From Candidatus Omnitrophota bacterium (GTDB lineage Bacteria; Omnitrophota; Gorgyraeia; Zapsychrales; Zapsychraceae), in NCBI GenBank assembly GCA_020429915.1, contig JAGQKV010000031.1, positions 2,656 to 66,655 on the forward strand: 64,000 bases of DNA, in the 5' to 3' direction. Below are positions 7,971 through 59,151 of this stretch, piece by piece. The first letter of the stretch is position 1. Every line of letters starts with the position of its first letter. The notes beneath the pieces are model-generated. The model was not told where the DNA came from. It ran no database searches and saw nothing but the letters and a program-made list of their open reading frames with translations. The translations under genes were made by a program, and so were the position numbers.

Positions 7971-8002
7971 TCGGGCCTGGGTGATCGTGTAATATAGAAG
8001 CC

Positions 8003-12515: not shown

Positions 12516-12524
12516 GCTACCGAT

Positions 12525-14915: not shown

Positions 14916-14916
14916 G

Positions 14917-22182: not shown

Positions 22183-22535
22183 TCTTTGCGGTATTGGGTG
22201 CTGCGCAGGCGGTTGATATTGTAGCTGACGTCTTTGATCAGGTTGGCCAGCCGCTGCAAGGCATTGAGGATATAGAGCATCCAGAAGGAATTAAGCAAGA
22301 GCAGCACGACCAGGATGCTGGAATTGACGTTCTGTGTGGTGAGGATGGCCTCCACAAAGGTCTTATCGGTTTGATGGAGGTTGATGTCGATGACGTTCAG
22401 CAGATTGCGGAACCAGAAGGCAAAGATGACCAGCAGCACCACCTGAAAGAAAGTGAAGTAGAAATGCCTCATCAGCCAGCGGGCGGCGAGGTGATCCCAG
22501 TATTTCAGCTTTTGCAGCAGGTCCTTAAATGGCAT
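22179..22535 (-). CDS. hypothetical small membrane protein, convergent to ftsA
   Basis: The 118-aa product has 2-3 hydrophobic helices (FYFTFFQVVLLVIFAFWF; ILVVLLLLNSFWMLYIL). It overlaps the ftsA stop by 4 nt on the opposite strand. I recognise no homology. Confidence 0.4.
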   Translation of the reverse strand: MPFKDLLQKLKYWDHLAARWLMRHFYFTFFQVVLLVIFAFWFRNLLNVIDINLHQTDKTFVEAILTTQNVNSSILVVLLLLNSFWMLYILNALQRLANLIKDVSYNINRLRSTQYRKD

Positions 22536-22648
22536 CGATTTATCCTTTTAAGGTATTGTAATGACATGCCTAATGAAAGCAATCATTTTTTTTGCTGGTT
22601 TCCCTGTCTTAATTTCTGTACAATGATCAATCGTTGCAAGGAGTATGA

Positions 22649-23017
22649 ATGGCGCACAAAATATTGGTAATCGATGACGAGCGGGTCAGTCTTTCCCTGG
22701 TAAAATTCGGGCTGGCCGCCAATCACTATGACGTCAGTACCGCGATGGACGGCGATGTCGGACTGGAAATGGTCAGGTCGGAAAATCCCGACCTTATCGT
22801 GCTGGACATCGGTATGCCGAAATTAAACGGTTACGAATTCATGCAGGAACTGAAAAATTTGGAAGGGCATGAGCACACGCCTGTTATCATTTTGACCGCC
22901 AACGAAACGATGGAAGATGTATTCAAACTTGAAGGCAGTCTGGAGTATTTTGTCAAGCCGGTCGACATCGCCAAGTTGGTGGCCCGGATCAAGGATTGCC
23001 TCGGCACCCCGGAGTAG
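22649..23017 (+). CDS. single-domain response regulator (CheY-like receiver)
   Basis: The sequence KILVIDDERVS...DLIVLDIGMPKLNGYEF....ILTA...KP has the phospho-acceptor Asp and K105-equivalent. An AAGGAG RBS is present. Confidence 0.8.
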   Translation: MAHKILVIDDERVSLSLVKFGLAANHYDVSTAMDGDVGLEMVRSENPDLIVLDIGMPKLNGYEFMQELKNLEGHEHTPVIILTANETMEDVFKLEGSLEYFVKPVDIAKLVARIKDCLGTPE

Positions 23018-23026
23018 GAGCCGCGC

Positions 23027-23305
23027 ATGACGTTTTTGTATACTTTCTTGGTGATCCTGACCTCCTGGCTGGTGCTCAGCCATACACGTTGGATATGGCT
23101 TATCAATCAGGCCCGCAAAAAGGGGATCTACCCGGAGAAAGGCAAGGCCACCATGTTCGACGTCCGCAGTTTGATCATCGAAGGGGAGTATGATCTGGCG
23201 ATCGAACTGTACCGCCGTCTGTTCAAGACATCCCGCCGCAATGCCCGCAAGGCTGTCGAAGACTTGGCCGACAGCATCAGCCAGAAAAATATCGAATACG
23301 AGTGA
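23027..23305 (+). CDS. hypothetical small protein (N-terminal TM)
   Basis: The 92-aa product sits directly after the response regulator and has one hydrophobic helix. Confidence 0.3.
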   Translation: MTFLYTFLVILTSWLVLSHTRWIWLINQARKKGIYPEKGKATMFDVRSLIIEGEYDLAIELYRRLFKTSRRNARKAVEDLADSISQKNIEYE

Positions 23306-23360
23306 ACCCGGCCTTCGAGGAAATTTTTTAGTTCTCGATCTAGCCGTCCGTCCGAACATC

Positions 23361-23654
23361 ATGGCTAAATGCCCGAACTGTCACAGTCATCTTTCGATCA
23401 AGCAGGTCCTGACCGGACCGTTGCGGTGTCAGGAGTGCGGCAAATTATTGAAGTTTCCCCGCCACGAGTATCGAAACGTAACCCGCCCGGGATTTTACAT
23501 CGCGGTGTTTATCCTCGCCAATTCCGTGACGGTGGCGGATGCCCGCATGCGGTTTGCCATTAACGGAGTTCTCCTCGTGTTGTGGTTTATCTTCTTTAAG
23601 CGGTTCATCCGCTACATTCATGAAACCATGCTCGAGTTATCGGAGGATCAATGA
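23361..23654 (+). CDS. zinc-ribbon membrane protein (CPNC...CQEC plus 2 TM)
   Basis: The product MAKCPNCHSHLSIKQVLTGPLRCQECGKLL has a Cys4 ribbon and then two hydrophobic helices. I placed the start at the internal ATG 23361. Confidence 0.4.
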   Translation: MAKCPNCHSHLSIKQVLTGPLRCQECGKLLKFPRHEYRNVTRPGFYIAVFILANSVTVADARMRFAINGVLLVLWFIFFKRFIRYIHETMLELSEDQ

Positions 23655-24793
23655 ATTCCTACGCCCGCGATTTTCATGATTTTGAGGACGTCATCTGGCT
23701 GAACGCCGCCAGCGAAGGCCCGTTGCCCAACGCGGCGAAAGAAGCCTTGGCAGAGGCCGTGGCCTGGAAAAGGGCCGTGCATCAATTGGATATTCCGAAG
23801 TTTATCCGGGTCCCGCGGGAGCTGCGGCAAAGTATCGGCAGTCTGATGAATGTGGACCCGGCTGACGTGATCTTGGGCAACAGTGCCAGTTACGGACTGC
23901 ACTTGCTGGCGGACGGATTGCCGTGGCAAAGCGGGGATGATGTCTTGTTGATGGAGAATGATTTTCCGACCGACATCCTGCCGTGGCTGGCGTTGGAAGA
24001 TCGGGGGGTTATGGTGCGTCAGGTGAAGCCTGCCGGTTGGGTGCTGACTGCCGATGAGATTGCGCAGAACATTGCGCCGCGCACGCGGGTCGTCTGCCTG
24101 TCCCATGTTCATACCTTCAGCGGTCATATGATCGATGCGCAGGCGGTAGCGGCGGTGTGCCGCCGACACGGGATCATATTTGTCTTGAATGTGGTGCAGT
24201 CGCTGGGAAACCGTCCGGTCGATGTCGCGGCGCTCGGCGCCGACGCGGTTGTGGCTGTCGGATACAAATGGTTGTGCGGGCCGTACGGGACAGGCTTTTG
24301 CTGGATAAGGCCCGAAGTGCGCCGTCGGCTCAGATTGAACAGAGCTTACTGGAGCGGATACCTGACGGCCGAGGAACTGGAGGTCGAGGGGCCGTTGACC
24401 CGCAAGCGCATCGACAACGCCCGGGGTCTGGACATCTTCGGCACCGCGAACTTTTTTAATTTTGTTCCCCTGCAGGCGGCCCTCCAGTATTGGCTTGCAA
24501 TTACCCCGAATGCTGTTCAGGAACACAACAGCGGGCTGGTGAACGCGCTGGTCGATGGTCTGGATCCAGCCAAGTACCGTCTCATTTCGCCTGTTGAGCC
24601 GGACCAAAGGACCAACCTGGTCGTGCTGTCGCTCGCGGACGCATCAGGAAATGCCGGACTTCACAAGGCATTGCAGGCAGAAAAGATTTACACCGCCTTG
24701 TGGAAAGGGCGGATCCGCCTCACTCCGCATGTTTATAACGACAAGGCCCAAATTTCCCGGGTTTTGACCTTCCTCAATGAGTACCCTCTTTAA
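23651..24793 (+). CDS. class V aminotransferase-fold PLP-dependent enzyme
   Basis: It shows AAT_V fold features (WLNAASEGPLPNAAKEAL...; a mid-protein Lys region). I could not see an NifS/SufS catalytic Cys loop. Confidence 0.7.
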   Translation: MNSYARDFHDFEDVIWLNAASEGPLPNAAKEALAEAVAWKRAVHQLDIPKFIRVPRELRQSIGSLMNVDPADVILGNSASYGLHLLADGLPWQSGDDVLLMENDFPTDILPWLALEDRGVMVRQVKPAGWVLTADEIAQNIAPRTRVVCLSHVHTFSGHMIDAQAVAAVCRRHGIIFVLNVVQSLGNRPVDVAALGADAVVAVGYKWLCGPYGTGFCWIRPEVRRRLRLNRAYWSGYLTAEELEVEGPLTRKRIDNARGLDIFGTANFFNFVPLQAALQYWLAITPNAVQEHNSGLVNALVDGLDPAKYRLISPVEPDQRTNLVVLSLADASGNAGLHKALQAEKIYTALWKGRIRLTPHVYNDKAQISRVLTFLNEYPL

Positions 24794-30879: not shown

Positions 30880-31395
30880 ATGAAATTCAAACCCGAGATC
30901 ATTTATATTCAAAGGCTTCTCAAGGAGACCAAGATCAAAGAGATTATGACCGTGCCTGTCATTAAGATTAACGACAATGACACGGTCAGCCGTGCGCAGG
31001 AATTGTTCGTGGAGCATGGCATTTATTACTTGCCCGTCGTGAACCGGCTCAATGAACTCGTCGGAGTAGTAACGCACAAATACCTGTATAAAACCGTGGC
31101 GCCGCGTAAGAACATGGGGAACGAGATGGCGGGGTATTCGCCGGACGTTGTTTATGACGGGGATTCCTTTTACGAGCGTGATAAGCTCGATCAGTTCAAA
31201 CTCACCAGGATCATGAATCCCAATCCCGTCACCTTGCGGCCGGACGACAGCGTGGCGGAAGCCGTCCTGACCATGACCCGCAAAAACACCGGCTGTATTC
31301 CCATCATCAAGGCGAACCGCAAGATTTGCGGGATCCTCACTCACAAAGACATCGTGGATCTGGCCACGCTGATCCTACTCGAAGAGGTCCAATGA
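30880..31395 (+). CDS. CBS-pair domain protein
   Basis: It has two CBS motifs (IMTVPVIKINDNDTV...; IMNPNPVTLRPDDSV...). Confidence 0.7.
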   Translation: MKFKPEIIYIQRLLKETKIKEIMTVPVIKINDNDTVSRAQELFVEHGIYYLPVVNRLNELVGVVTHKYLYKTVAPRKNMGNEMAGYSPDVVYDGDSFYERDKLDQFKLTRIMNPNPVTLRPDDSVAEAVLTMTRKNTGCIPIIKANRKICGILTHKDIVDLATLILLEEVQ

Positions 31396-32717
31396 CACAA
31401 ACGTTTGAAGACAAGCAGAATATCGAATTCAATGACAAGTTCGCGTTTTGCTATGACCTGCTCGAAAACGACAATTGTAATCTCTTTATAACGGGGAAGG
31501 CCGGCACGGGAAAGTCGACTCTTCTTGAGTATTTTCGCGACCATACCACCAAAAAGGTCGTCTTCCTGGCGCCGACCGGCGTGGCTGCCGTCAACATCAA
31601 GGGCCAGACGATTCATTCTTTTTTCTGTTTCCGGCCGGATACGACACCGGAAAATATCTTCTCGATTCGCCTCCACCGATCGCAGCGCCGTCTCTATGAG
31701 AGCCTTGATGCGGTGGTTATCGATGAGGTATCGATGGTCCGCGCGGATTTGCTCGACTGCATCGATACCTTCCTGAGATTGTACGGCAAGAAAAAAGATC
31801 AGCCGTTCGGGGGCGTGCAGATGATTTTCTTCGGTGATCTCTATCAATTGCCGCCGGTAGTGACCCAACGGGAGCAAAGTCTTTTCCGGGATGTCTATTC
31901 CAGTCCGTTCTTCTTCGACGCGAAATCTTACAAGCATCTGAATTTACGCCTGGTGGAGCTCGAGAAGATTTACCGCCAGTCCGATCAGGAATTTATCAAT
32001 CTGCTGGGCGGTCTGCGCAATCGTACATTTTCCCGCTGGGATATGGTAGAGCTTAACCGCCGGGTTAATCCGGAATTCAAAATTCCCCGGGGGGAATACT
32101 ACATCTCGCTGACCACCACCAATGCCATCGCCGACCGGGTTAATCAGGAGCAACTGGCCAATCTCGACGGAGACGTGTGCGAGCGTGAGGGAGATTTGAT
32201 CGGAGAGTTCAAAGAAAAGGACCTGCCCACGCGGCTGACACTGAAATTGAAGGAAGGCGCGCAGGTGATGATGCTCAACAACGATCCGCAGGGTCGCTGG
32301 GTCAACGGGACTATCGGTAAGATCACTTTTCTGGATGAGGAAGGCTTCGGTGAAGGGAGTGTGGAGGTCAAGATCCAGGGCGGTAATATCGTTGAGGTTA
32401 AGCCGGTCACCTGGGAGATGTTCCGCTTCTTCTTCAACGAAGATACCCAGGGGATCGAATCGGAGGTGGTGGGCTCGTTTTCCCAGCTGCCGCTCAAGCT
32501 AGCCTGGGCGGTAACGATTCACAAGAGCCAGGGTAAGACCTTCGATAAGGTGATCATCGATATCGGCAACGGCACCTTTTCTCACGGCCAAATATACGTG
32601 GCAATGAGTCGTTGCACCACCTTTGAGGGCATCGTATTGCGCAAGCCGATTTATGACCATCACGTCCTGCTCGATCCGCGCGTGGTGGAGTATATGTCAG
32701 CCAATCAGTGCAGTTAG
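31392..32717 (+). CDS. Pif1/RecD-like SF1B ATP-dependent DNA helicase
   Basis: It has a Walker A (GKAGTGKST), DEVSMV (Walker B), and QLPPV and HKSQG motifs typical of the Pif1 family. I chose the start at 31392, overlapping the CBS gene stop. Confidence 0.7.
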   Translation: MTQTFEDKQNIEFNDKFAFCYDLLENDNCNLFITGKAGTGKSTLLEYFRDHTTKKVVFLAPTGVAAVNIKGQTIHSFFCFRPDTTPENIFSIRLHRSQRRLYESLDAVVIDEVSMVRADLLDCIDTFLRLYGKKKDQPFGGVQMIFFGDLYQLPPVVTQREQSLFRDVYSSPFFFDAKSYKHLNLRLVELEKIYRQSDQEFINLLGGLRNRTFSRWDMVELNRRVNPEFKIPRGEYYISLTTTNAIADRVNQEQLANLDGDVCEREGDLIGEFKEKDLPTRLTLKLKEGAQVMMLNNDPQGRWVNGTIGKITFLDEEGFGEGSVEVKIQGGNIVEVKPVTWEMFRFFFNEDTQGIESEVVGSFSQLPLKLAWAVTIHKSQGKTFDKVIIDIGNGTFSHGQIYVAMSRCTTFEGIVLRKPIYDHHVLLDPRVVEYMSANQCS

Positions 32718-42440: not shown

Positions 42441-42545
42441 AATAGTTGTTGCCATCTGCCGCGGCCGTGATATATTCTAAAATCTCCTTTCCGTTACATT
42501 TCATCAATTTTCCCGTGTCGTCCCGCGTTTACGTGCCGACATTTT

Positions 42546-42619
42546 GCGCCTGTAGCTCAGTTGGATAGAGCACCAGTCTTCGGAACTGGGTGTCAGGGGT
42601 TCGAATCCTCTCAGGCGCG
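42546..42619 (+). tRNA. tRNA-Arg (anticodon TCG)
   Basis: I folded it manually. The acceptor is GCGCCTG/CAGGCGC, the D-arm GCTC-AGTTGGATA-GAGC, the anticodon arm CCAGT-CTTCGGA-ACTGG (anticodon UCG) and the T-arm AGGGG-TTCGAAT-CCTCT, with discriminator G. Confidence 0.85.
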
Positions 42620-42738
42620 TTTTACTTTTCCCCGCGACTCTCGTCGTACATGAAATGTCTTTACAATGAGAAAAGTTTTTTATAAGATACACCCGAATTA
42701 ATTCACCGGAACATATCCGTCTCAATTTCAAATTCGAC

Positions 42739-47782: not shown

Positions 47783-47875
47783 ACCGGATACAAATTGCTT
47801 CCAATGATTGACACGTGTTGGGGGCGTTCTATAATGAAAGAGATTTTCCTGCCGGACTTACGAGAGGAGATAACG

Positions 47876-48328
47876 ATGATGTCGAGAAATAGCTCAGGAA
47901 TGTTACTGCTGGTTTTCATGCTGGTGACGGCGTCTGTCGCCGAGGCGCAAATGATTAATTATCACCGACGGAATCAACGTCAGTCGCCGAAACAAGCCGC
48001 CAAGTCCGATCCGCAACCAATCCGGAAGGTCAAGACGGAGGATCGCGCCATTAATTACTATCGAAGCGACTACGCAACGGAGCCGGCCGGCCAAGAAGCG
48101 TCCGCTCAACCCCGCGTGACGAACAGGGTGGAACGGCTTTATGATTTGAATCGTGACGGCTTCCTGCAACCCGATGAAGTCGCCGACTTCTATCGGGATG
48201 TCGTTTCCTCCGTCCAGAATCGGGGGAGTTTCCGGGTCAGCTCCGATCTGCTCCGGGACTTTGATTCTGATCAGGACGGACGGATCAGCCGTTACGAAGT
48301 GGGCGAGATCGCCAATCGATTAAACTAG
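47876..48328 (+). CDS. secreted EF-hand calcium-binding protein
   Basis: It has a signal peptide (MMSRNSSGMLLLVFMLVTASVAEA). There are two canonical EF-hand loops, DLNRDGFLQPDE and DSDQDGRISRYE. Confidence 0.5.
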   Translation: MMSRNSSGMLLLVFMLVTASVAEAQMINYHRRNQRQSPKQAAKSDPQPIRKVKTEDRAINYYRSDYATEPAGQEASAQPRVTNRVERLYDLNRDGFLQPDEVADFYRDVVSSVQNRGSFRVSSDLLRDFDSDQDGRISRYEVGEIANRLN

Positions 48329-48367
48329 TTTCACTATAACTAACCGGTCACGCCGTTTTCCCGCCGC

Positions 48368-49702
48368 GTGACCTTCCACTTTATGACCCTTCATTCACCG
48401 ACATTCCGTCGTTCCGGAAAGGCGTTTCTTTTGCTTATGACGGGATTGACTCTCACCTCTCTGTGCGGGCGCACCGTGGTGCCGGTCCGGGCTCAATCTC
48501 AGTTGGGAGGAACCGGGGCATCCGACGCGAAGAGTAGCGAAACCTATCAGGAGTATCTGGCATTCTTCCGGGAAGTTTTCGATATCATGCGGGAGAATTA
48601 TTACAAGGATATCGATGAGGAAGACTACGACCGGTTTTTGCAAACTTTTGACCAGAAGATATTCGCCCAGCTTAAGGGGGAGGGGAAGTCGAATGACTTT
48701 GTTCGCTGGCGCAGCGCCGCATTTCTGGTCGACTTTCTGAAAGAAGACGACGATATTTTTTCCGCTTTTTATCCGCCGAAACCGGCCAAGGAGTACGAAG
48801 AAACTGCGCTGGGTAAGCGTATCGACCTTGGCCTGGAGGGAGAGCTGCTGCCGGTCGGTTTCCGGCTGACTTTCGTTGAGCCGCGCTCGAATGCCTACCA
48901 GCTGGGAATGCGGGAAAACGACTTGCTAGTCATGATCGATCAGGCAGAAGTGAGCGGTCTCAGCGAGGAGGAAGTGCGTGATCGCTTGCGGCCACTGGAA
49001 GATACGGTCGTGTCGCTGGTGTATTTGGACGGTCAAACCCGGGAGTCCAGGGGAGTCGATGTGGTTTCCGAAGAGTACTTCAAACAGGCGGTGTTCGACG
49101 TTCCCATTCCTGTGCCGGGGATTTATTGCCTGAAAATTGAGCGGTTTAACCGAAAAACTTTTGAGGATGTCTTTCGGTTTCTCACTTTTTATCGTCAACA
49201 TGGGCCGATCAAGGGGTTGATTATCGATTTGCGTGGAAATCCCGGTGGTCCGCCGTTGGCGGCCCGTGAAATCTCATCATTTTTCCTGCCGGCAGGAGAG
49301 GAATTTGCCTATTTTCAGAGGAACAACAAACCGAAGGCCGAATTGGATGTCCCCGAACTGCCCCAGGAACATCATTACGACGGCCCGCTGGCGATCCTTA
49401 TCGACGAGGGCAGCGGCAGTGCCTCGGAGCTTTTTTCAGGAGTTATGCAACAGCGCCGGCGCGCCGTTTTGCTAGGTGAAAACTCCGCCGGGCAGGTGTT
49501 TCTCAAAAGTATGTTTCCGCTGGAAGATGAATCTATGCTATTATTAGTTACCGCACGCGGCCACTATCCTGACGGCCAAGTCTTCAGCTTTCAAGGTTTA
49601 ACTCCGGACCGGCACGTGGCCAGCATGAATCAGGATGACATCCTCAAGTACGCGGCGACATACATTCTCTACGTGAACCAGAAAGACAACGCATCCCTAT
49701 GA
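48368..49702 (+). CDS. S41 family peptidase (C-terminal processing / tail-specific protease-like)
   Basis: It has a signal peptide and a PDZ-like middle. The catalytic region is IDLRGNPGGPPLAAREISSFF (Ser), with ...DEGSGSASE.... Confidence 0.72.
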   Translation: MTFHFMTLHSPTFRRSGKAFLLLMTGLTLTSLCGRTVVPVRAQSQLGGTGASDAKSSETYQEYLAFFREVFDIMRENYYKDIDEEDYDRFLQTFDQKIFAQLKGEGKSNDFVRWRSAAFLVDFLKEDDDIFSAFYPPKPAKEYEETALGKRIDLGLEGELLPVGFRLTFVEPRSNAYQLGMRENDLLVMIDQAEVSGLSEEEVRDRLRPLEDTVVSLVYLDGQTRESRGVDVVSEEYFKQAVFDVPIPVPGIYCLKIERFNRKTFEDVFRFLTFYRQHGPIKGLIIDLRGNPGGPPLAAREISSFFLPAGEEFAYFQRNNKPKAELDVPELPQEHHYDGPLAILIDEGSGSASELFSGVMQQRRRAVLLGENSAGQVFLKSMFPLEDESMLLLVTARGHYPDGQVFSFQGLTPDRHVASMNQDDILKYAATYILYVNQKDNASL

Positions 49703-50457
49703 AAAAGGCACCCGGCCTCAAGACGCTTCAGTCCGAAAAGGGCGCAGTAAATCAAGCGCGACTCCTGATCGTCGTGCCTGCCTATAATGAGGAAGGGAGT
49801 ATCCGCGCGGTGGTGTCCGATATCATTTTGTCTCCTTGGAATTTGGATGTGTTGGTTGTGAACGACGGATCGACGGACCAAACTTTTGAACAGGCGAGGG
49901 CCGCAGGAGTTAATGTGATTTCGCTACCGTTTAATCTGGGTATCGGCGGGGCGGTCCAAACCGGTTTTCAATTTGCCCTGCGTCAGGGTTACGATTTGGT
50001 GGTCCAAATGGACGGCGACGGCCAGCACGATGTCGATTTTCTCGGTACTCTGGTTAATCCCATATTGAACAATGAAGTGGATATGACGATAGGAAGCCGT
50101 TTTATCCCGCCGTATCTCGGCTATCAATCTTCGTTCGTGAGGAGGATCGGCATTAATTTCTTTGCCCGATTGTTAAGTGCTTTAACCGGATCCCCGGTGA
50201 CGGATCCGACCAGTGGATTCCGGGCCTATAACCGGAAAATGATCAATATTTTCGCCCGGTATTATCCGCACGATTTTCCGGAGCCGGAAGCTATCGTCGT
50301 GGCCGGGAGATACGGCGCGCGCATTCGTGAAGTCCCGGTGACCATGCGGGAGCGGCAAGCCGGTTCGAGTTCGATCCGTTATTTTAAAACGTTGTACTAC
50401 ATGCTCAAAGTGACACTCGCCATTTTACTGGGCCGGTTTAAGACCAAGAGGGGATAG
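49699..50457 (+). CDS. GT2 glycosyltransferase (polyprenyl-phosphate sugar synthase, GtrB/DPM1-like)
   Basis: The motifs LLIVVPAYNEEGSI...VVNDGSTDQT...QMDGDGQHD (DxD) are present. Confidence 0.75.
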   Translation: MKKAPGLKTLQSEKGAVNQARLLIVVPAYNEEGSIRAVVSDIILSPWNLDVLVVNDGSTDQTFEQARAAGVNVISLPFNLGIGGAVQTGFQFALRQGYDLVVQMDGDGQHDVDFLGTLVNPILNNEVDMTIGSRFIPPYLGYQSSFVRRIGINFFARLLSALTGSPVTDPTSGFRAYNRKMINIFARYYPHDFPEPEAIVVAGRYGARIREVPVTMRERQAGSSSIRYFKTLYYMLKVTLAILLGRFKTKRG

Positions 50458-50463
50458 CGCGAC

Positions 50464-50847
50464 ATGATCATCAAATTTATAACGGTGAGCGCAGGTTTGA
50501 TGATGGTTGTTTTTGTGCTCGAGTTGATCCGCAAAGAGCGTTTGACTTTTAAATACGCGTTTGCGTGGCTGGGTGTCGGTGCCTTGCTGGTTTTCTTTGC
50601 CGTTTTCGACGGGCTGTTGTATCAACTGGCATATGCTTTGGGATTTCAATTGCCCAGCAATTTTATATTCTTCAGTCTCTCCGGAGTTTTTGTGGTGTTG
50701 AGTTTCCTAATGACGGTTTTTTTGTGCCAGCAAAATGAGCGTAACGATTCCATGGCACAAAAAATCGGAATTCTTGAATTTGAGATCCGCCAACTGAAAG
50801 AAGAGCTTGAGCTAAAGGAAAGAGCGCATGAAAACCAAAAATCTTGA
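50464..50847 (+). CDS. DUF2304-like small membrane protein
   Basis: It has 3 TM helices and a C-terminal coiled coil (EFEIRQLKEELELKE). It lies downstream of a GtrB-like GT2, which is a recurrent pairing. Confidence 0.45.
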   Translation: MIIKFITVSAGLMMVVFVLELIRKERLTFKYAFAWLGVGALLVFFAVFDGLLYQLAYALGFQLPSNFIFFSLSGVFVVLSFLMTVFLCQQNERNDSMAQKIGILEFEIRQLKEELELKERAHENQKS

Positions 50848-51499
50848 ATTGCCCGGGGCTCAGGATTGGAACCATTACTGGGAACGGGGGCAAACCCAGC
50901 GCTTCACCCGTGTCAGCTGGTCCAAGCGGAGGATCATTCGGATGCTGCAGCCGTACTTGAAGACCGGGTGCCATGCGCTCGATGCCGGTTGCGGAAGCGG
51001 ATTCTTTTCACAATTCTTTTGCGAAAGCGGAATGCGCGCCACAGCCCTCGACTACTCGCGGTCTGCTCTTGAAATTGCCGGGTCCAAGACCCGGGGCCGT
51101 GCCAAACTGGTCCAGGCGAATTTGGTGGAAGATGACCTGTCTGTTAAGTTAACGGACCGTTATCACCTCGTTTTTACCGACGGACTTTTGGAGCACTTTG
51201 TTCCCGCCGACCAGGACCGTATTATCCGCAATTTAATGAGTATCCTCGTCGACGATGGCGTGATTGTCACCTTCGTTCCCAACCGCTGGTCGCCGTGGGA
51301 GCTCATCCGACCGCTTTATATGCCGGGCATAAAAGAAGACCCCTTCCGTTTGGGGGAGCTGGTCGACCTGCATGAGCGGAATCATCTTAAGGTCCTCGCC
51401 CGCGGCGGGGTCAATACGGTTCCTTTTGCTTTTTCCCCCGACGGACTCTTCGGTTCGGTTTTCGGGATGTTATTGTTTACCATTGCCAAATTACGATGA
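50828..51499 (+). CDS. class I SAM-dependent methyltransferase
   Basis: Motif I (ALDAGCGSGFFS) is present, as is motif post-I (…ALDYSRSALE). Confidence 0.7.
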   Translation: MKTKNLELPGAQDWNHYWERGQTQRFTRVSWSKRRIIRMLQPYLKTGCHALDAGCGSGFFSQFFCESGMRATALDYSRSALEIAGSKTRGRAKLVQANLVEDDLSVKLTDRYHLVFTDGLLEHFVPADQDRIIRNLMSILVDDGVIVTFVPNRWSPWELIRPLYMPGIKEDPFRLGELVDLHERNHLKVLARGGVNTVPFAFSPDGLFGSVFGMLLFTIAKLR

Positions 51500-52479
51500 C
51501 ACAACCATCCGTTGCGGTCGTCATTCCCGCTTTTAACGCTGAGCAGACCTTGCCTTTCTGTTTGCAGGCGGTAACATCTCAGAACATCCCCCCTCAGGAA
51601 ATTATCGTTGTGGACGACGGATCCTCAGACCGGACTTCGGCCGTGGCCGGTTCTTTTCCCGAAGTGCGCTGTGTGCGACAGGATAATGCCGGGCCGGCAG
51701 CCGCCCGCAACCGCGGTCAGCGCGAGACCGGGGCGGATATCGTTTTGTTCACGGATTCTGATTGTGTTCCGGCTCCCGATTGGGTGGCTGCGGCAGCGGC
51801 CGGGTTTGTGAGGGAAGATATCGGGGCTGTGGCCGGAAGCTACGATATCATCAATCCCGGGTCGCGGCTGGCTCGCTGCATTCACGCGGAGATTTTGTAC
51901 CGGCATCTGCGCTTGCTGCCGGAATATCCCCGGGCTTTCGGGAGTTTTAACGTGGCCATTCGGCGGGATGTCTATGTCGGGGTGGGTGGTTTTGACGAGT
52001 CGTATCCGGCGGCCTCCGGAGAGGATAATGACCTGAGCTACCGGATCCGGCGGGCCGGGTATAAGATCCGCTTCGATCCCCGTTCGCGGGTCGGCCATCA
52101 CCACCCGGAACGGGTCGTGCGTTATCTGCGGGAGCAGTTCCGGCACGGTTTCTGGCGGGTTAAAATGTACCGCGCACATCCGCATATGGCCGGGGGGGAC
52201 GATTATACTTTCTGGAAGGATATTGCGGAGGTGGGGTTGGCGGGATTGACAGGATTGGCGTTGCTGATTTTACCGTTCGGTCTGCCGGCTGTGTGCGTGG
52301 TCGTCTTGGGTGGAGCCCTCATGCTGCTGCAAGCAGGTTTCTGTTTCCGGATCTGTCCTAACATGTTTGACGGAATTTTTTACTCGCTGGTATTGTTTTT
52401 GCGTGCATTCGCGCGTGCCATAGGTTTCTCGTCGGGGATGTTGTCGTCATTCGGCCGCCGAAAAACAAAAAAAAGCTAA
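51496..52479 (+). CDS. GT2 glycosyltransferase with C-terminal membrane helices
   Basis: It has VVIPAFNAEQTL...VVDDGSSDRT...FTDSDCV (DxD) and two C-terminal TM segments. Confidence 0.72.
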   Translation: MTQPSVAVVIPAFNAEQTLPFCLQAVTSQNIPPQEIIVVDDGSSDRTSAVAGSFPEVRCVRQDNAGPAAARNRGQRETGADIVLFTDSDCVPAPDWVAAAAAGFVREDIGAVAGSYDIINPGSRLARCIHAEILYRHLRLLPEYPRAFGSFNVAIRRDVYVGVGGFDESYPAASGEDNDLSYRIRRAGYKIRFDPRSRVGHHHPERVVRYLREQFRHGFWRVKMYRAHPHMAGGDDYTFWKDIAEVGLAGLTGLALLILPFGLPAVCVVVLGGALMLLQAGFCFRICPNMFDGIFYSLVLFLRAFARAIGFSSGMLSSFGRRKTKKS

Positions 52480-52614
52480 AATTGGCTTGTGCCGATAGGG
52501 GCATATGCTAATATAAGGACGTGTTCAAGACCCTAGTCAGATTTTTCGAACCATATTTCGCTATAATTGGAAGGTCATATCTTTCAACAAGATCGATGTC
52601 GTGTCCAAACCGGG

Positions 52615-52633
52615 CCGGGGGACGCCCGGTTTT
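52615..52633 (+). terminator. possible intrinsic terminator (CCGGG-ggacg-CCCGG-TTTT)
   Basis: A short GC hairpin is followed by a T run, about 135 nt downstream of the GT2 stop. The stem is short. Confidence 0.3.
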
Positions 52634-52995
52634 GGCCGGGACAATGAGCCAGACCCATCTTCATCACGCCGCAACTCAGTCCATCCACTTGGGTTCACTT
52701 CATTCCGCCGCGTCTTTCGGATCTTGTTGGTGTTATCCGATGCTATTGAATTTCCTCCATTTTTTTCTTGCAGAATTAGTCAGACGGGCCGATTCCGTTT
52801 TGGACATATTGGCTAAAACTGTTTGCCGTGTTACGTCCACTGAATGTGAAATCCGTGTTTTTCCGGTAACCTGTGGCCGGGAAAATAGCGTTTTCTCGAC
52901 GAGAAAATTGTTCGCGTAGTGATTTTAAATTTATTAAGAAAAAAAAAGAATTTCATCTTGTATTTAGAGATACGTAACTATAAGATTATAACTAT

Positions 52996-53616
52996 ATGAT
53001 TTTGAAGAAGAAAGAAACTGCTGAGCAAAAGCTCCTTAAAATGATCGAGGCGTCTTCCGGAGATGCCGGCGCGGCGTCCCGTGCACAACGCAAAACGTCT
53101 CGCCAGCAAGATGCTTTGTCTCTGCTGAAGACGTTCAACAGTCTGTTGCTGATTTTGATTGTCGGGGTGGCCGTCCTTGTCGGTCTCGAGATCAAAAAGG
53201 GCATGGACATCATGGGAGCGGGCATAGATATCCAGGCGGAACGGGGGATGACAGACTCGATGGACGGTGACAAAGTGCATACGGTCCAAAAATTACCGTT
53301 TTATCTGGCCGGTGTAAACCGTCGCAACATTTTCCGGCCCTATGACGAACAGATCTTTGCCGACGTCAGCCCTGTTCAGGAGCTAATGACCATTACCCGC
53401 AAGACCGAAAATCTTCGTTTGGTAGGGATTTCCTGGATGGATCGCGTCGAAAGCGCCTCGGCGATGATTGAAGATACCGAAAAGCAGGTCACCTACTTCC
53501 TGCAAAAAGGTGAAAAAATCGGCAATATCGAAGTCAAGACTATCTACGCCGACAGCGTGGAACTTGCTCTTGAAAACGAGGAGATGATACTGAGATATGA
53601 CAAACCACAACTGTAA
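52996..53616 (+). CDS. bitopic membrane protein upstream of secretin (possible PilP/GspC-like accessory)
   Basis: The 206-aa product has a cytoplasmic N-terminus, one TM (LLLILIVGVAVLVGL) and a periplasmic domain. It overlaps the secretin start by 20 nt. The AT-rich upstream has TATAAGATTATAACTATATG. Confidence 0.35.
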   Translation: MILKKKETAEQKLLKMIEASSGDAGAASRAQRKTSRQQDALSLLKTFNSLLLILIVGVAVLVGLEIKKGMDIMGAGIDIQAERGMTDSMDGDKVHTVQKLPFYLAGVNRRNIFRPYDEQIFADVSPVQELMTITRKTENLRLVGISWMDRVESASAMIEDTEKQVTYFLQKGEKIGNIEVKTIYADSVELALENEEMILRYDKPQL

Positions 53617-55198
53617 AAAGACTGTACGACGGCGAGCATTTCTCCCGCTCTTGGGCGCCCTCGCGTTGGTTGCCGGTAATTCCACGTTCGCGGCGGCGCA
53701 GGCCCCGCGTCCGATCCAGGTAAAAAACTACGAAGAAGAGATACTTAAACGTATGCAGCGGACGATCACCCTGGATGTCCGGGATATGAACATCGTCGAC
53801 GTCATCAAGTTCCTGGCCCTGAAAGGGGATTTCAATGTGGTCATTTCCCCAACCGTCGAGGGAAGATCGACAGTCTTGTTGAACAGCGTGACCATTAAGG
53901 ATGCGCTTGATATCGTTATTATTTCCAATAACTTAGCGTATAAGATTCAGGGTGAGATTGTTCAGATCATGACTTCTGCCGAGTATGAATCGATGTTCGG
54001 TAAACGTTTTGGCGATCAGACGGTCGTGGCCATTGAGCGCCTGAATTATGCCAAGCCCAGTTACGCTCTGGCCGCGCTGGACAGCATTAAGAGCAACGTT
54101 GGGCGCATTATTATAGATGAAGACACCGGGTCGGTGGTTATGATCGACACCCCCGAATCCATCGCTAAAATGCGTCAGGCCATCCAGGAGATCGAAAAGC
54201 CTTTGGAAACATATATTTACACGCTCCAGTATGCCAGCGCGGACGTGGTGGCCAATAAGTTGCGCGCGCGCATTGATGCCAAGGCTGTCGGTTCGATCAC
54301 GCCCGATGAACGCTCGAACAAGCTCATCGTCCGGGCTTTTCCCGAACGCCGCCGCGAAATCGAAATGATCGTGAAGAAGCTCGACTCTCCCACAAAGGAG
54401 GTGCTAGTCGACGCACGTATTCTCCAAGTCGTTCTCAATCCGGAGTATGACGTGGGCATTGATTGGAACAAGGATTTTCGCAAGAGCGGTGACGATGAAT
54501 TGCGAAAGCTCCAATTTAACAACATTTATCTCAATGCCGACAATTTGTCCAATAGTGACAACCTGGCCAATACATTCGGTCAGGTTGCCTTCGGGGATAT
54601 CAATGTTGATTCATTTGAGCTGACTTTGCGCGCCTTGCGCCAAGTCAGCGAAACCAAGATCTTGTCCAATCCCAAAATCCTGGTGACCAATAATGAAGAA
54701 GCCAAGATTCACATCGGCGATACGGTTCCGTACATCATATCCACCACTTCGGGAACAGGAGACAATGCGATTACAAGCGAAGATGTCCGGTTTATTGATG
54801 TCGGTCTCAAACTCAACGTGACGCCGATCATCAATGACGAAGGCTTTGTGACCATGCGCCTGCGTCCGGAGATCTCCACTATTGTCGGTGTCGTCGAGTC
54901 ACAGGGCGGCGGCATCCCGCAGGTGAATAAGACCGAAGTGGAAACGACGGTCATGGTGCACGACGGGCACAGTATTGTCTTGGGCGGACTTAAAAAAGAT
55001 GACCGGGTCCACTCCAAGAAGGGCTTTCCGGCACTAATGGATGTTCCGGTCATGGGGGCTCTCTTTGGCCGGACATCCGATGAGTATGCTCAAACCGAGA
55101 TCGTTATATTTCTGACACCGCACGTTGTTAAAGGCCACGAAGATTACGCGCAGATGAATGGCAACATCAAACCTTTTAAATCGTATAGTAACGAATAA
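53597..55198 (+). CDS. outer-membrane secretin (T2SS GspD / T4P PilQ family)
   Basis: It has a signal peptide and an N0-like domain (NIVDVIKFLALKGDFNVVISPTVEGRSTVLLNSVTIKDALDIVIISNNLAY). The C-terminal secretin domain carries ...KILSNPKILVTNNEEAKIHIGDTVPY... and ...SIVLGGLKKD....IVIFLTPHVV. Confidence 0.8.
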   Translation: MTNHNCKKTVRRRAFLPLLGALALVAGNSTFAAAQAPRPIQVKNYEEEILKRMQRTITLDVRDMNIVDVIKFLALKGDFNVVISPTVEGRSTVLLNSVTIKDALDIVIISNNLAYKIQGEIVQIMTSAEYESMFGKRFGDQTVVAIERLNYAKPSYALAALDSIKSNVGRIIIDEDTGSVVMIDTPESIAKMRQAIQEIEKPLETYIYTLQYASADVVANKLRARIDAKAVGSITPDERSNKLIVRAFPERRREIEMIVKKLDSPTKEVLVDARILQVVLNPEYDVGIDWNKDFRKSGDDELRKLQFNNIYLNADNLSNSDNLANTFGQVAFGDINVDSFELTLRALRQVSETKILSNPKILVTNNEEAKIHIGDTVPYIISTTSGTGDNAITSEDVRFIDVGLKLNVTPIINDEGFVTMRLRPEISTIVGVVESQGGGIPQVNKTEVETTVMVHDGHSIVLGGLKKDDRVHSKKGFPALMDVPVMGALFGRTSDEYAQTEIVIFLTPHVVKGHEDYAQMNGNIKPFKSYSNE

Positions 55199-55206
55199 CA
55201 AACTTT

Positions 55207-55734
55207 ATGACAAAGGGCTTACATATGCGCCAAAGAGGACTTGAGATGAAAAGCAGCCACCATCCGACGATAATTGTGTGTCTTATGTGCAGCCTCATAC
55301 TCGGCTTGGTTGGAACCGCCGGAGCGCAACTCGAAGGCAAAGAGATTCGCAACCGCGAACACCAGACGCTCGATCTTTTGTCCAATATCGATACCTACAA
55401 TATCAACGATGAACGTCTGCGCATGGATGCGGCGAAGGCGCACTACAATATGGGCAACATATACTTTCAGAAGGGGTACTACGAGATCGCCGCGCGCGAG
55501 TACTATCAGGCGGTTACCCTGATGCCCAACGACCCCGACACGCATTTCAATCTCGCTTTTGTCAGTAGTGAGTATCTAAGGGATTTCAAGACGGCGCTAA
55601 AGCACTACAAAATGTACCTTTATCTGAACCCGGACGCTAAGGATCGCGCCTTCGTGAACGAAAAGATTATGCACGCCCAGTTGGAAATCCGGGGAACTCT
55701 GGACTCCATTCTGGAAAAAGATATCAATAAGTAA
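55207..55734 (+). CDS. TPR-repeat protein with signal peptide (pilotin/PilF-like?)
   Basis: It has an N-terminal hydrophobic segment and then TPRs (AHYNMGNIYFQKGYYEIAAREYYQAVTLMPNDPDTHFNLAFV...). It lies immediately downstream of the secretin. Confidence 0.55.
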   Translation: MTKGLHMRQRGLEMKSSHHPTIIVCLMCSLILGLVGTAGAQLEGKEIRNREHQTLDLLSNIDTYNINDERLRMDAAKAHYNMGNIYFQKGYYEIAAREYYQAVTLMPNDPDTHFNLAFVSSEYLRDFKTALKHYKMYLYLNPDAKDRAFVNEKIMHAQLEIRGTLDSILEKDINK

Positions 55735-55895: not shown

Positions 55896-57512
55896 GTGGT
55901 ATCATTCGGTAGGTCCTACAGTCACATGCGAAATTTATTTTTAGTCAATCTTCAGATCCCCTCAATATTATTTATATTATTGTTTTGCGGATCCGACGCC
56001 CTCGCCAGCAATCTCTCCGTGTCCAATGTCGCCATCGCCTCCCGTAATCCGTCAACCAAAAAGCTGACCGCCACGTTCGATCTTACCTGGGAAAACGCCT
56101 GGAAAACCAAAATCAACCACGATGCTGTATGGGTCACGCTCCGTCTGCATAAGGCAGGAGCCAATCCCGTGGCCAAGAAATTGTGCCCGTTGTCGGCCTC
56201 TGGTCTGAACCCCGCGGGTACGGGAACCGGCACATCCCCCAATATCGAAGTTTATGTTCCCGCGGACAAAGCCGGGGCGTTCTTCCGTTTATCCGACTAC
56301 GGCATCCGGCCTGACGTCGTTTCCCAGGGCGTACAACTGGAGATCGATTACGAAGCCTGCGGATTCGCGGCGGATGACTCGGTCTATCTAAGTGTCTTGG
56401 GGCTTGAGATGGTCTACATCCCGAAGGGTGCTTTCTATGCCGGTGACTATGGGACAAGTACGGCGGTTTTGACCGAAGGCAGCGCGGATACCGATCCGTG
56501 GCACCTTACATCAGCCGGGCCTTTGTCCGTTTCCAACCCGACCATGGACGGCTACCGGTATTCCGCCGTCGGCCACGCGGGCGAGGATGCCTCCGGCAGC
56601 GCCTTCTCGGTACCGGCCGCATTTCCCAATGGTTATAAGGCGTTTTACGTGATGAAATATGAGTTGACTGAGGGACAGTGGGTTGAATTTCTGAATTCAC
56701 TGCCATCCGCGGCGGCGCGTGCTCATCATGATTTGACCGATAATAATCACAAAAACAGCGACGCGGTACGTGCCAGAAACACTGTCAGTTGTTCCGGGTC
56801 TCCGGTAACCTGCTCGACACAACGGCCCTACCGGGCGGCAGGTTATTTGTCGTGGATGGATCTGGCGGCTTTTCTGGACTGGGCGGCCCTGCGCCCCATG
56901 ACTGAACTGGAATATGAAAAGGCCTCCCGCGGACCGGTCGTTCCGGAAGAGGGCGAATTTCCCTGGGGAGACCAAACGATAACCGCCGCAAACACCGTGA
57001 CGACAGGCGACGAAGGCGGGGCCGAACGCGTCCTGACAACGGGCGCTAACGCCCACTTCGGTAGCGCCGTAATCAGCGGCGGTGATTCCGTGTACGGTGC
57101 TGAATACGCATACGGCCCCTTGCGCCAGGGGATTTTCGCCGGTTCCGAATCCACCCGTGTTAGCGCGGGCGCCTCCTATTACGGTGTCATGGAGCTTTCC
57201 GGAAATGTATGGGAACGGACCGTGACCATCGGCAATGCCAGCGGTCGTAATTTTGCCGGTACACACGGTGACGGGATGCTTTCCACGGCAAGCGGTTTCG
57301 AGGGATACGCGAATCAATCCGATTGGCCGGGAATTAATCCTACGCCGGCCCGCGGAGTGGACGGCGCCGACGGATCGGGGTACCGGGGCGGAAGTTTTGC
57401 CGCGTCCCAGGGGACGCTGCGCGTATCCGACCGTTCCAGGGCCGCGGAGACCAACACCGCCGCATCTTCCGACAGCGGCGGCAGAGGAGTAAGGACTGAT
57501 GATGCCAATTGA
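55896..57512 (+). CDS. secreted FGE-sulfatase (SUMF1/GldJ/GldK-type) domain protein, paralog A
   Basis: It has a signal peptide. Strong FGE-family motifs are present: YVMKYELTEGQWVEFLN, ...GYLSWMDLAAFLDWAALRPMTELEYEKASRG (WxDAxAYxxW...PTEAEWE pattern), GNVWER and YRGGSF. A novel ~170-aa N-terminal domain precedes them. Confidence 0.7.
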   Translation: MVSFGRSYSHMRNLFLVNLQIPSILFILLFCGSDALASNLSVSNVAIASRNPSTKKLTATFDLTWENAWKTKINHDAVWVTLRLHKAGANPVAKKLCPLSASGLNPAGTGTGTSPNIEVYVPADKAGAFFRLSDYGIRPDVVSQGVQLEIDYEACGFAADDSVYLSVLGLEMVYIPKGAFYAGDYGTSTAVLTEGSADTDPWHLTSAGPLSVSNPTMDGYRYSAVGHAGEDASGSAFSVPAAFPNGYKAFYVMKYELTEGQWVEFLNSLPSAAARAHHDLTDNNHKNSDAVRARNTVSCSGSPVTCSTQRPYRAAGYLSWMDLAAFLDWAALRPMTELEYEKASRGPVVPEEGEFPWGDQTITAANTVTTGDEGGAERVLTTGANAHFGSAVISGGDSVYGAEYAYGPLRQGIFAGSESTRVSAGASYYGVMELSGNVWERTVTIGNASGRNFAGTHGDGMLSTASGFEGYANQSDWPGINPTPARGVDGADGSGYRGGSFAASQGTLRVSDRSRAAETNTAASSDSGGRGVRTDDAN

Positions 57513-59151
57513 TATGAGACCTGCCTTGCGATTCGTTCTGGGAACAATGACATCTTTAGCCCTCATTTTTCCGGGAACCGCGCTGGCCAATCACCTGCAA
57601 ATCGATAACTATGAGGTGACGGCGATCGACGAGGCCAGCAACATGATGACCTTTACCGGAGATTTCATGTGGGAAAACAGCTGGCGGAATGTCAACAGCA
57701 ACGACGCGGTCTGGGTCTTCGTCAAATATTCCCTCGACGGCGGAGCGACCTGGAACCACGCCAGCATGACATCCAGCGGACTCAATCCCATCGGCTTCGC
57801 CGCTCCGGCGGGCTTCCAGATCGTGGTTCCCAATGACGAGCGCGGATTTTTTCTGGAACCGACGAGCTTCAGCAGCGGTGATGTAAATGTCCAGGGGGTC
57901 AGATTTTCCTGGGATTATGCCCAGGACGGTCTTAGCGATGAACAGGCTATGGCGGCCAATACGATCACCAAGGTTTTCGGTATCGAAATGGTCAAGATTC
58001 CCGAAGGCGCCTTTTACGCGGGCGACGGAAACAGTTCCTCAGCGCATCGCTTTAAGCAAGGTTTGGGTGACAACGATCCGTGGTATATCGAAAGTTCCGC
58101 GGCAATCAATGTCGCCAACGCAGGTAGTGACGGATATTACTACCAAAGCGCCGGAGCCAGCGGAGAGAGTGCCACCGGATCCTCATTCCTGATACCCACG
58201 TCATTTCCCAAGGGTTACAGCGCTTATTATGTGATGAAGTATGAGTTGACTGAAGGGCAATGGGTCAGCTTTTTTAATACTTTAAGTTACGCGCAAAAGA
58301 TGAACCGCGATATTACGGCCGCCAGCCGTGGCGGCAAAAATGCCGATACGATCGTTAACCGCAACACGGTGAGTTGGGATTCCGGCAATCCGCGGGCACA
58401 GGCTAGTACGTCCCGGCCAGACCGCCCGGTGACCTACATCTCGTGGCCGGATTTACTGGCCTACGCCGACTGGGCGGGATTGCGGCCCGTTACCGAACTT
58501 GAGTACGAAAAAGCGGCGCGCGGCGTCGATGTCTTGCCAACAGCTGATGAATACGCCTGGGGCAAGTCGACGTACAACGACGCTCAGGCCGGTGAAATCT
58601 ATCCGAACGCCGACGAGACCGGTCAGGAGCAGATTTTCGACGGTGCGGCCAATCTTAACCGTAACGCGCTCAGCTGGTCATCGGGAGACGGACGGCCCGG
58701 CGGCCCGGCGGACGGACAGAAGGGGCCGCTGCGGGTCGGTATTTTTGCCGAGGACTCCACCAACCGGGTGACGAGCGGCGCCGGATTCTACGGCACCATG
58801 GAGTTGTCCGGCAACCTGGCCGAAATGGTGGTATCGGTCGGCCGTACGGAAGGGCGCAATTTTTTGGGTTCGCATGGCGACGGTATTCTCTCCAGCGCCA
58901 CCGGATATGCCGGTAACGCGACCAACATTGACTGGCCGGGGATTGATCCGGTCGATCCGAACCGCGGCGTGACGTCCACGGTCGGTTCGGGGACCCGCGG
59001 CGGGGACTTTCAATCCGCGGATGTCAGACTGTTCCAGATTTCCACCCGGACTAACGCTACGCGCGACCCGGATAGTGAGGGGTACTACCAGCGTTTCGAT
59101 CCGGCGTTCGGGGTATTCCAGGGGGGCCGTCTGGCTCGCACGGCTCCTTAG
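57499..59151 (+). CDS. secreted FGE-sulfatase-domain protein, paralog B (tandem duplicate of A)
   Basis: It is collinear with A, sharing the YVMKYELTEGQWVSFFN, ...YISWPDLLAYADWAGLRPVTELEYEKAARG, MELSGN and TRGGDF motifs and the same N-terminal domain (…WENSW…NHDAVWV…). It overlaps A by 14 nt. Confidence 0.7.
   Translation: MMPIDMRPALRFVLGTMTSLALIFPGTALANHLQIDNYEVTAIDEASNMMTFTGDFMWENSWRNVNSNDAVWVFVKYSLDGGATWNHASMTSSGLNPIGFAAPAGFQIVVPNDERGFFLEPTSFSSGDVNVQGVRFSWDYAQDGLSDEQAMAANTITKVFGIEMVKIPEGAFYAGDGNSSSAHRFKQGLGDNDPWYIESSAAINVANAGSDGYYYQSAGASGESATGSSFLIPTSFPKGYSAYYVMKYELTEGQWVSFFNTLSYAQKMNRDITAASRGGKNADTIVNRNTVSWDSGNPRAQASTSRPDRPVTYISWPDLLAYADWAGLRPVTELEYEKAARGVDVLPTADEYAWGKSTYNDAQAGEIYPNADETGQEQIFDGAANLNRNALSWSSGDGRPGGPADGQKGPLRVGIFAEDSTNRVTSGAGFYGTMELSGNLAEMVVSVGRTEGRNFLGSHGDGILSSATGYAGNATNIDWPGIDPVDPNRGVTSTVGSGTRGGDFQSADVRLFQISTRTNATRDPDSEGYYQRFDPAFGVFQGGRLARTAP

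Follow-up and report, generated by a model that had tools for sequence, protein, structure and literature searches.

The question raised by this locus is whether a secretin gene that stands apart from pilin and motor ATPase genes is an orphan or the visible part of a larger machine. The gene lies in a stretch of 64,000 nucleotides (nt) from a Candidatus Omnitrophota bacterium (NCBI GenBank assembly GCA_020429915.1, contig JAGQKV010000031.1, positions 2,656 to 66,655 of the forward strand), hereafter called the window, which also supplies the coordinates used below. Omnitrophota are ultrasmall, uncultured and probably predatory or parasitic bacteria, in which giant proteins and pilus-like systems are thought to mediate host contact. 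A first-pass annotation, made from the sequence alone, had described the gene as an orphan secretin whose cargo might be encoded nearby. We hold with moderate confidence that it encodes the outer-membrane pore of a type-IV-filament machine resembling the type II secretion system (T2SS) and the MSHA pilus. The pore would be served by an adaptor and a tetratricopeptide repeat (TPR) accessory protein, with the core genes beyond a giant downstream gene whose product is the probable cargo.

The gene product is a member of the secretin superfamily (PF00263, 6.8e-49, 166 bits against a cut-off of 27.5), with two Secretin_N matches (4.8e-24, 84.8 bits) and a weak match to STN/N0. An AlphaFold model built on 60 orthologues (pLDDT 73) gave, in order, a signal helix, an N0 domain (residues 56-134), two ring domains (143-199 and 204-262) and the barrel (268-511). 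No S domain was present in this model, in which the protein stops about 20 residues past the barrel, and no AMIN domain was detected by Pfam or in the model. The top structures found by Foldseek with the model were GspD, InvG, ExeD and PilQ. The secretin with an N0 domain read by the first-pass annotation was in this way confirmed by Pfam, AlphaFold and Foldseek. Its range of 53597-55734 was too wide: the secretin occupies 53597-55198, and the rest includes a gene of 175 amino acids (aa) for the TPR protein (55207-55734).

Classification within the superfamily was less simple. The best NCBIfam model was PilQ (TIGR02515; 250.3 bits, cut-off 284.35); GspD (TIGR02517) gave 249.6 bits (cut-off 351.35) and MshL (TIGR02519) 178.5 bits (cut-off 250.2), and none of these cut-offs was reached. 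HofQ scored 184 bits, far under its cut-off, and SctC 129 bits. The closest PDB sequences were GspD 5wln (1.3e-40) and PilQ 6w6m (1.4e-34), with pIV 7ofh at 2e-15. Since the scores lie under both cut-offs, the protein is, as judged by these models, an intermediate between PilQ and GspD that belongs to neither curated family. The complete architecture of a GspD-type secretin, N0-N1-N2-N3 with a pilotin-binding S domain, was absent, and no lipoprotein was found in the locus. In one relative (L059:4987-9140) the window-type secretin is duplicated in tandem, the second copy lying after the TPR gene and being about 58% identical to the window protein.

A protein of 206 aa is encoded upstream. The end of its gene overlaps the start of the secretin gene by 20 nt. 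An alignment of 40 homologues revealed a conserved cytoplasmic N-terminal motif (KETAEQKLLKxIE), one transmembrane helix and a C-terminal domain of the homology region (HR) type. The window protein itself scored 24.9 bits against PF11356 (T2SSC), just under the cut-off of 27, and 24 of the 40 family members matched this model (best 3.4e-13), with four matching T2SSB. A profile of the family found only GspC HR-domain structures in the PDB (7oio the best at 3e-3; 3oss, 2lnv and 6hcg OutC). On these matches the protein is probably a GspC-family adaptor, which would place one partner of a type II secretion or pilus machine next to the secretin. In the T2SS the GspC HR domain binds the secretin N0 domain, and 3oss is the structure of such a complex. 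The flanking genes had been correctly listed in the first-pass annotation as a bitopic membrane protein upstream and a TPR protein downstream, but the former is not anonymous, being a probable GspC-like adaptor.

The conservation of this arrangement was then surveyed across the phylum. Secretin orthologues (57-90% identity) fell into more than 120 protein clusters from at least 80 species. The best 120 homologues were 61-100% identical, and those with a labelled source came from Candidatus Omnitrophota/Omnitrophica or from vent metagenomes. One genome per species was taken, giving 80 orthologous loci (secretin identity 57-83%) that were analysed with open reading frames (ORFs) and BLAST; the counts that follow are among testable loci. 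The adaptor was directly upstream of the secretin in 75 of 76 loci and the TPR protein directly downstream in all 76. A giant ORF was present in 32 of 32, and one or two genes of the formylglycine-generating enzyme (FGE) fold in 44 of 55. A 300-aa AAA_22 ATPase gene (GspA/MshM-like) preceded the adaptor in 39 of 71 loci; its best match was TIGR03015 (195 bits, cut-off 324), whose members are described as homologues of GspA and the MSHA ATPases. Glycine-cleavage and lipoate ligase genes (gcvP/lplA) lay upstream of the cassette in 61 of 62, and loci of the window's kind, linked to glycine-cleavage genes, are called gcv-type below. The recurring block thus consists of the AAA ATPase (in about half of the loci), the GspC-like adaptor, the secretin, the TPR protein, two non-catalytic FGE-fold proteins and a giant protein of 13-residue repeats. 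The loci differ widely in GC content (34-57%), so the block extends over much of the phylum.

Within the window the locus genes are closely packed and all on one strand (Table 1). The secretin, TPR, FGE-fold and giant proteins all carry signal peptides of the signal peptidase I type, and none is a lipoprotein; a lipobox was absent from the secretin and from the TPR protein. The TPR gene follows the secretin after a gap of 8 nt and is always directly 3' of it. It was considered as a pilotin of the PilF/PilW/Tgl kind and rejected, as it has weak generic TPR similarity far under the PilW and Tgl cut-offs and no lipobox.

The two FGE-fold genes overlap by 14 nt and encode tandem paralogues with a common mature N-terminus (NNLxIxN...W(E/D)NSW), of which the NNLxIxN motif opens the mature first protein. 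The PDB matches of this first protein were FGE enzymes with weak scores. The second has no cysteine at all, and the catalytic cysteine-pair motif LCHESYC of 6s07 aligns to QSAD--V. Because the catalytic cysteines are absent it is not a formylglycine-generating enzyme (FGE/SUMF1), and an active enzyme was ruled out. A structural or binding role is more likely for the FGE-fold proteins than an enzymatic one. The fold family is the same as that of GldJ, GldK and PorK of type IX secretion, and the models of these three gave no sequence match to the FGE-fold proteins. One locus has other genes in place of the FGE pair: L025 (12998-14827) encodes three paralogues in tandem, each about 195 aa long and with a signal peptide, for which Pfam gave no match.

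The remaining window is filled by one open frame from 59243, which continues beyond position 64000. The encoded protein has a signal peptide and a conserved mature N-terminus. Its conserved N-terminal region, about 100 aa long, looks from the sequence like an Ig-type fold and is followed by 95 or more copies of the 13-residue repeat xAGINWxDIxxLS; 91 of 94 spacings are of 13 aa. Of all residues, 6.4% are tryptophan. The repeat is also seen in the DNA with periods of 39 and 78 nt, at a nucleotide match of merely 60-70%. Orthologues are about 4800 aa long (4867 aa in L001). Pfam matches to Ntox33 and ALTTAQ_rpt were discarded as repeat artefacts with no single significant stretch.

The partners also stay together in more distant cassettes. 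In L085, L086 and L088 the secretin is 39-45% identical to that of the window and the flanks are unrelated. L085 carries the AAA ATPase, adaptor, secretin, TPR and FGE genes and a giant INW-repeat protein. In L088 the ATPase, adaptor, secretin and TPR genes are followed by a small ORF and a large protein with the same conserved N-terminal region and a different repeat passenger. L086 has a MerR gene, the ATPase, adaptor, secretin and TPR genes and an ABC transporter; at a greater distance it also encodes a protein longer than 3113 aa. Because the linkage outlasts a complete change of flanks, a shared function of the cassette and the giant protein can be argued. The suggestion that the cargo is encoded nearby gained support from the link to a Sec-exported giant protein in every testable orthologous locus and in L085 and L088.

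A search for PilO gave five matches, and the PilO gene beside a 41%-identical secretin (L087) led to a complete operon (L089); more copies were sampled independently through GspE matches. In L089, L090, L173 and L177 the gene order is (TPR), GspE with an MshEN domain, GspF, GspG, two further genes, GspJ, GspK, a PilM/N fusion, PilO, MerR, AAA_22 ATPase, adaptor and secretin. In L175 the ATPase-adaptor-secretin cassette lies upstream of GspE. The small MerR-family regulator precedes the cassette in the complete operon (L089, L090, L173, L175 and L177) and in the stand-alone L086, and is not found before the gcv-type cassette. Identities within the operon-linked clade were 62-73% for the ATPase and 47-57% for the secretin, and within the giant-linked clade 51-65% and 36-83%. 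Between the two clades they were 46-55% and 32-41%. In a neighbour-joining tree the clades were sisters, apart from the secretins that lie beside GspE in other metagenome contigs, and both score between PilQ and GspD. Since both the ATPases and the secretins form sister clades, the window cassette is by sequence homologous to the exit (distal) end of a T2SS/MSHA-like operon.

Where the corresponding core genes might lie was indicated by the few loci in which the giant gene ends within the covered DNA. There were two of these, L041 (868 aa) and L025 (1332 aa), from different subclades. In both, the giant gene is followed by a signal-peptide protein of 434-455 aa without a Pfam match (protein X) and then by an F1 ATPase alpha subunit (PF00006, 1e-68). 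A metagenome scan with a GspE alignment gave generic patterns, with matches of 40-52% identity mostly outside Omnitrophota, and L093 alone was useful. The first gene there is a surface ORF of 1451 aa or more, similar to protein X at its C-terminus (1e-12 to 1e-25). Next come the epsilon, c, b/delta fusion, alpha (3.5e-155 to the L041 alpha), gamma and beta genes, and then GspE with a C-terminal PilZ domain, two PilZ proteins, GspF, pseudopilins, a PilM/N fusion, PilO and phosphoglycerate kinase. The F-type ATPase cluster of L093 (4490-9597), placed between the large surface protein and GspE-PilZ, has no recognisable a subunit. An OSCP-like delta subunit gene occurs upstream of the cassette in about 37 orthologous loci. 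In L003 (5037-5411) this small OSCP-like (ATP synthase delta) gene lies between the S41 peptidase and GT2 genes, and it is present in neither the window nor L001. The L093 arrangement matches the published F-type ATPase/type IVa pilus (T4aP) loci of Omnitrophota, in which the two lie within 10 kb of each other in 57 of 66 contigs and in every class (Seymour et al. 2023, PMC10066038).

The most economical reading of these sequences would be one super-locus in the order [delta]-GT2-DUF2304-methyltransferase-GT2-[AAA]-adaptor-secretin-TPR-[FGE x2]-giant-X-F1 cluster-GspE.PilZ-GspF-pseudopilins-PilM/N-PilO. This order is pieced together from several loci, and in the present genome the core would lie beyond position 64000. 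The missing pilus or secretion motor genes are thus most likely beyond the window end. The secretin is probably no orphan because the GspC-like adaptor gene overlaps its start, the cassette is homologous to an operon end, an F1-type ATPase follows the giant gene in relatives, and a secretin-less GspE...PilO core stands with an equivalent ATPase cluster in L093; the orphan label was probably wrong. A T4P or T2SS operon elsewhere that lacks its own secretin had been named beforehand as the sign of a simply displaced gene, and such an operon was found in relatives (L093) but not in this genome.

From these parts a mechanism can be proposed. Sec would export the pore subunits and the TPR, FGE-fold and giant proteins into the periplasm. 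The secretin would multimerise in the outer membrane, with possible help from the TPR protein and, in loci that have it, the GspA/MshM-like ATPase; such a role in secretin assembly is attributed to ExeA/B or MshM/N in their own systems. The C-terminal HR domain of the adaptor would dock on the secretin N0, and its transmembrane helix and conserved cytoplasmic peptide would tie the pore to a platform of GspE-type ATPase, GspF, pseudopilins, PilM/N fusion and PilO. We infer that the genes of this platform most likely belong to the same super-locus and lie downstream of the giant gene and the F1-type ATPase cluster. A pseudopilus driven by GspE could then push the giant repeat protein out or present it at the surface. 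In all these loci GspE carries an MshEN domain, to which L093 adds a PilZ domain; given these domains, GspE is probably regulated by c-di-GMP. The giant protein, and perhaps both FGE-fold proteins, would be cargo, fibre or periplasmic partners, either passing through the pore or assembling at it.

Several points weigh against this proposal. No core gene was seen in this genome, as the window ends inside the giant gene. The first step from cassette to core, from the giant gene to the F1 alpha gene, was seen in two loci, and the second, from the F1 cluster to GspE...PilO, in one locus and in the literature. No secretin was found in the covered stretch of L093, which excludes 10 kb upstream. The alpha and beta subunits of L093 reach the NCBIfam atpA and atpD cut-offs, with gamma far below its own, and because alpha and beta do so the ATPase could be an ordinary ATP synthase whose genes happen to lie beside the locus. 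Neither the AAA ATPase gene nor the OSCP-like gene is present in the lineage of the window. For the giant protein, an AlphaFold prediction from a single sequence was unusable (pLDDT 38). Finally, the support for the proposal comes from sequence and models.

A first alternative, possible though unlikely, is that the cassette is a second, paralogous GspC-GspD exit module without a core of its own. It would share the platform encoded by the other T2SS-like operon of Omnitrophota, an operon with a secretin of its own, and would act as an alternative specificity gate for the neighbouring giant protein. The two clean sister clades of both ATPase and secretin would fit such a duplication of the exit, as would the retention of an own cassette in four of the five GspE-anchored operons. 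Adaptors from either clade have the same cytoplasmic N-terminal motif and an HR domain in the alignment, and the ATPase is dispensable in half of the gcv-type loci, as if provided in trans. GspC and GspD are also known to determine substrate specificity in the Dickeya Out systems. However, L041, L025 and L093 indicate a dedicated second core beside the F1 cluster. When the whole-genome shotgun (WGS) prefixes of the secretin and GspE hits were compared, no genome with both a gcv-type cassette and a core operon was found.

A bolder idea, which we regard as doubtful and distinctly unlikely, is that the secretin serves as the port for a single-polypeptide fibre of about 4800 aa with about 350 13-residue repeats. 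The machine that extrudes or operates this fibre would then be a hybrid of a type-IV-filament platform, an F1-type rotary ATPase and a ring of non-catalytic FGE-fold proteins. By analogy, the hypothetical ring is likened to the GldK/PorK rings of type IX secretion, and the giant surface proteins with a hypothetical F1-like motor to the gliding machine of Mycoplasma mobile. If true, this would be a new kind of organelle for prey attachment or surface motility in ultrasmall predatory bacteria.

It is quite improbable that the gene is simply the displaced pilQ or gspD of the organism's only T4P or T2SS, with functionally unrelated FGE-fold and giant neighbours. Secretins encoded away from their core genes are known in other bacteria, and L176 is a T2SS-like operon with no cassette within 10 kb. 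Yet the GspE of L176 is 73% identical to the GspE of L173 and L175, whose operons carry system-1 (operon-linked) cassettes, and the linkage to the TPR and giant genes outlasts both the changed flanks and the drop in secretin identity to 39-45%.

The last and highly improbable alternative is an autonomous secretin without a filament motor, acting as a gated channel for the giant protein, in DNA uptake or as a pIV-type pore of filamentous phage: it agrees with the lack of motor genes in the window and with the HofQ and pIV matches given above, but the family scores are all far under their cut-offs, the presence of a GspC-type adaptor with its cytoplasmic motif implies that the pore is coupled to a machine in the inner membrane, and the locus is fixed in the chromosome beside the gcv genes (61 of 62 loci) without phage genes. 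A prophage or pIV pore was in addition excluded by the chromosomal synteny in 80 species, the housekeeping and envelope neighbours and an empty scan of IMG/VR viral contigs.

We return to the proposed pore of a T2SS/MSHA-like machine and to the window around it. The genes scanned between 42739 and 59151 were, in order, gcvT, gcvH, gcvPA, gcvPB, lipoate ligase, an EF-hand protein, an S41 peptidase, GT2, DUF2304, a methyltransferase, GT2 and the secretin locus. By Pfam and a prepilin motif scan no GspE/F, PilM/N/O or prepilin-type gene was found within 10 kb of the secretin, as the first-pass annotation had stated; the downstream side of this distance is almost wholly the giant ORF. None was found among the other scanned window genes either, a scan that did not extend to the division and cell wall (dcw) cluster at 8003-24793. 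The region 6652-24793 opens with rsmH, the one gene scanned there, and resembles a dcw cluster. On the forward strand at 47795-52479, the genes for the secreted EF-hand protein, S41 peptidase, GT2, DUF2304, methyltransferase and second GT2 are syntenic with the secretin cassette throughout the phylum. This block may serve the locus, for example by glycosylating the cargo. The window also contains a XerC/D-type tyrosine recombinase (653-1543), a PIF1-family helicase (31326-32717) and a tRNA-Arg(TCG) (42545-42620).

Directly before the adaptor lies a non-coding spacer at the site where about half of the loci have the ATPase gene. An ORF at 52521-52919 was not accepted as a gene, being unconserved and without a Pfam match. 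The spacer contains the perfect palindrome TTTTCTCGACGAGAAAA (52891-52907), a promoter-like site and a terminator-like hairpin (52856-52887). The palindrome is also found in L005, and the two spacers have only it and the proximal promoter region in common. The element may be an operator or a small RNA; Rfam gave no family match for 52480-52995. No remnant of an AAA ATPase gene and no homology to the L001 ATPase gene were found in the spacer. Because the window and L005 (83% identical) both lack the gene and the spacer holds no remnant, its absence is typical of the lineage and not a sign of damage.

Table 1. Features of the secretin locus in the window.
Feature	Position	Strand	Basis or remark
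Non-coding spacer, 516 nt	52480..52995	.	Site of AAA_22 ATPase gene in about half of orthologous loci
GspC/MshK-like inner-membrane adaptor (by sequence), 206 aa	52996..53616	+	PF11356, family profile, alignment
Secretin, 533 aa	53597..55198	+	Pfam, NCBIfam, PDB sequence matches, AlphaFold, Foldseek, signal peptide analysis
Periplasmic TPR protein, 175 aa	55207..55734	+	TPR_11 4.9e-12
FGE-sulfatase-fold protein 1, 538 aa, Sec-exported	55896..57512	+	PF03781 1.3e-10
FGE-sulfatase-fold protein 2, 550 aa, Sec-exported	57499..59151	+	PF03781 6.8e-16
Giant Sec-exported repeat protein, 5' part, at least 1578 aa	59264..64000	+	Open frame to window end

Previously, T4aP and Tad systems, F-type ATPase/T4aP loci and T2SS-like loci next to giant genes have been published for Omnitrophota, the last of these by West-Roberts et al. 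(2023, bioRxiv 10.1101/2023.11.21.568195). The word "secretin" is absent from the main texts of Seymour 2023 (PMC10066038) and West-Roberts 2023 (10.1101/2023.11.21.568195), which do not mention the secretin-adaptor-TPR-FGE-repeat block, and our literature search found no paper that connects a secretin with Omnitrophota in this context. Neither the adaptor-secretin-TPR-FGE-repeat-protein block nor the two secretin clades nor the specific 13-residue-repeat protein appear to have been described so far. The compact, phylum-wide block ties one secretin clade to an adaptor, a TPR protein, two FGE-fold proteins and one giant repeat protein, and probably also to the F-type ATPase/T4aP locus of the literature. 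It offers a concrete, testable candidate for the exit route of at least one giant protein. It also illustrates how a 14-kb gene and a window edge can hide partners, so that a secretin looks isolated in automated scans.

The closest resemblance may be sought among known systems. In the MSHA pilus of Vibrio cholerae, MshK-MshL-MshM-MshN form the outer-membrane sub-module. Similarly, the Omnitrophota block has a small bitopic protein, a secretin, in some loci an AAA_22-type ATPase, and a TPR protein, and the related operons have GspE with MshEN, an MshI-like PilM/N fusion of about 480 aa and a PilO-like protein comparable to MshJ. Unlike in MSHA, the ATPase is upstream of the adaptor or absent and does not stand between the secretin and TPR genes, the module is apart from the core genes and linked to FGE-fold and giant repeat proteins, and the MshL score is under its cut-off. 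With the GspC-GspD pair of the T2SS and its GspA/GspB (ExeA/ExeB) the block shares an HR adaptor and an N0 secretin, a GspA-like P-loop ATPase in relatives and putative substrates exported by Sec. However, there are three N-domains here instead of four, no S domain or pilotin lipoprotein, no PDZ domain on the adaptor and no peptidoglycan-binding domain on the ATPase. With PilP-PilQ and the TPR pilotin PilF/PilW/Tgl of the T4aP it has in common an HR/PilP-like adaptor, a secretin and a TPR accessory, whereas AMIN domains are lacking, the TPR protein and adaptor are not lipoproteins, no pilMNO genes are adjacent and the PilQ score is under its cut-off.

The loci of Seymour 2023 and West-Roberts 2023 are from the same phylum and are alike in the F1-type ATPase beside T4aP/T2SS-like genes (as in L093), the giant secreted proteins beside secretion genes and the presence of PilZ nearby. 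In the locus of West-Roberts et al., gspD, gspE, gspF and rcpC stand together upstream of genes for more than 30,000 aa, whereas here the pore module stands alone before a gene for about 4800 aa.

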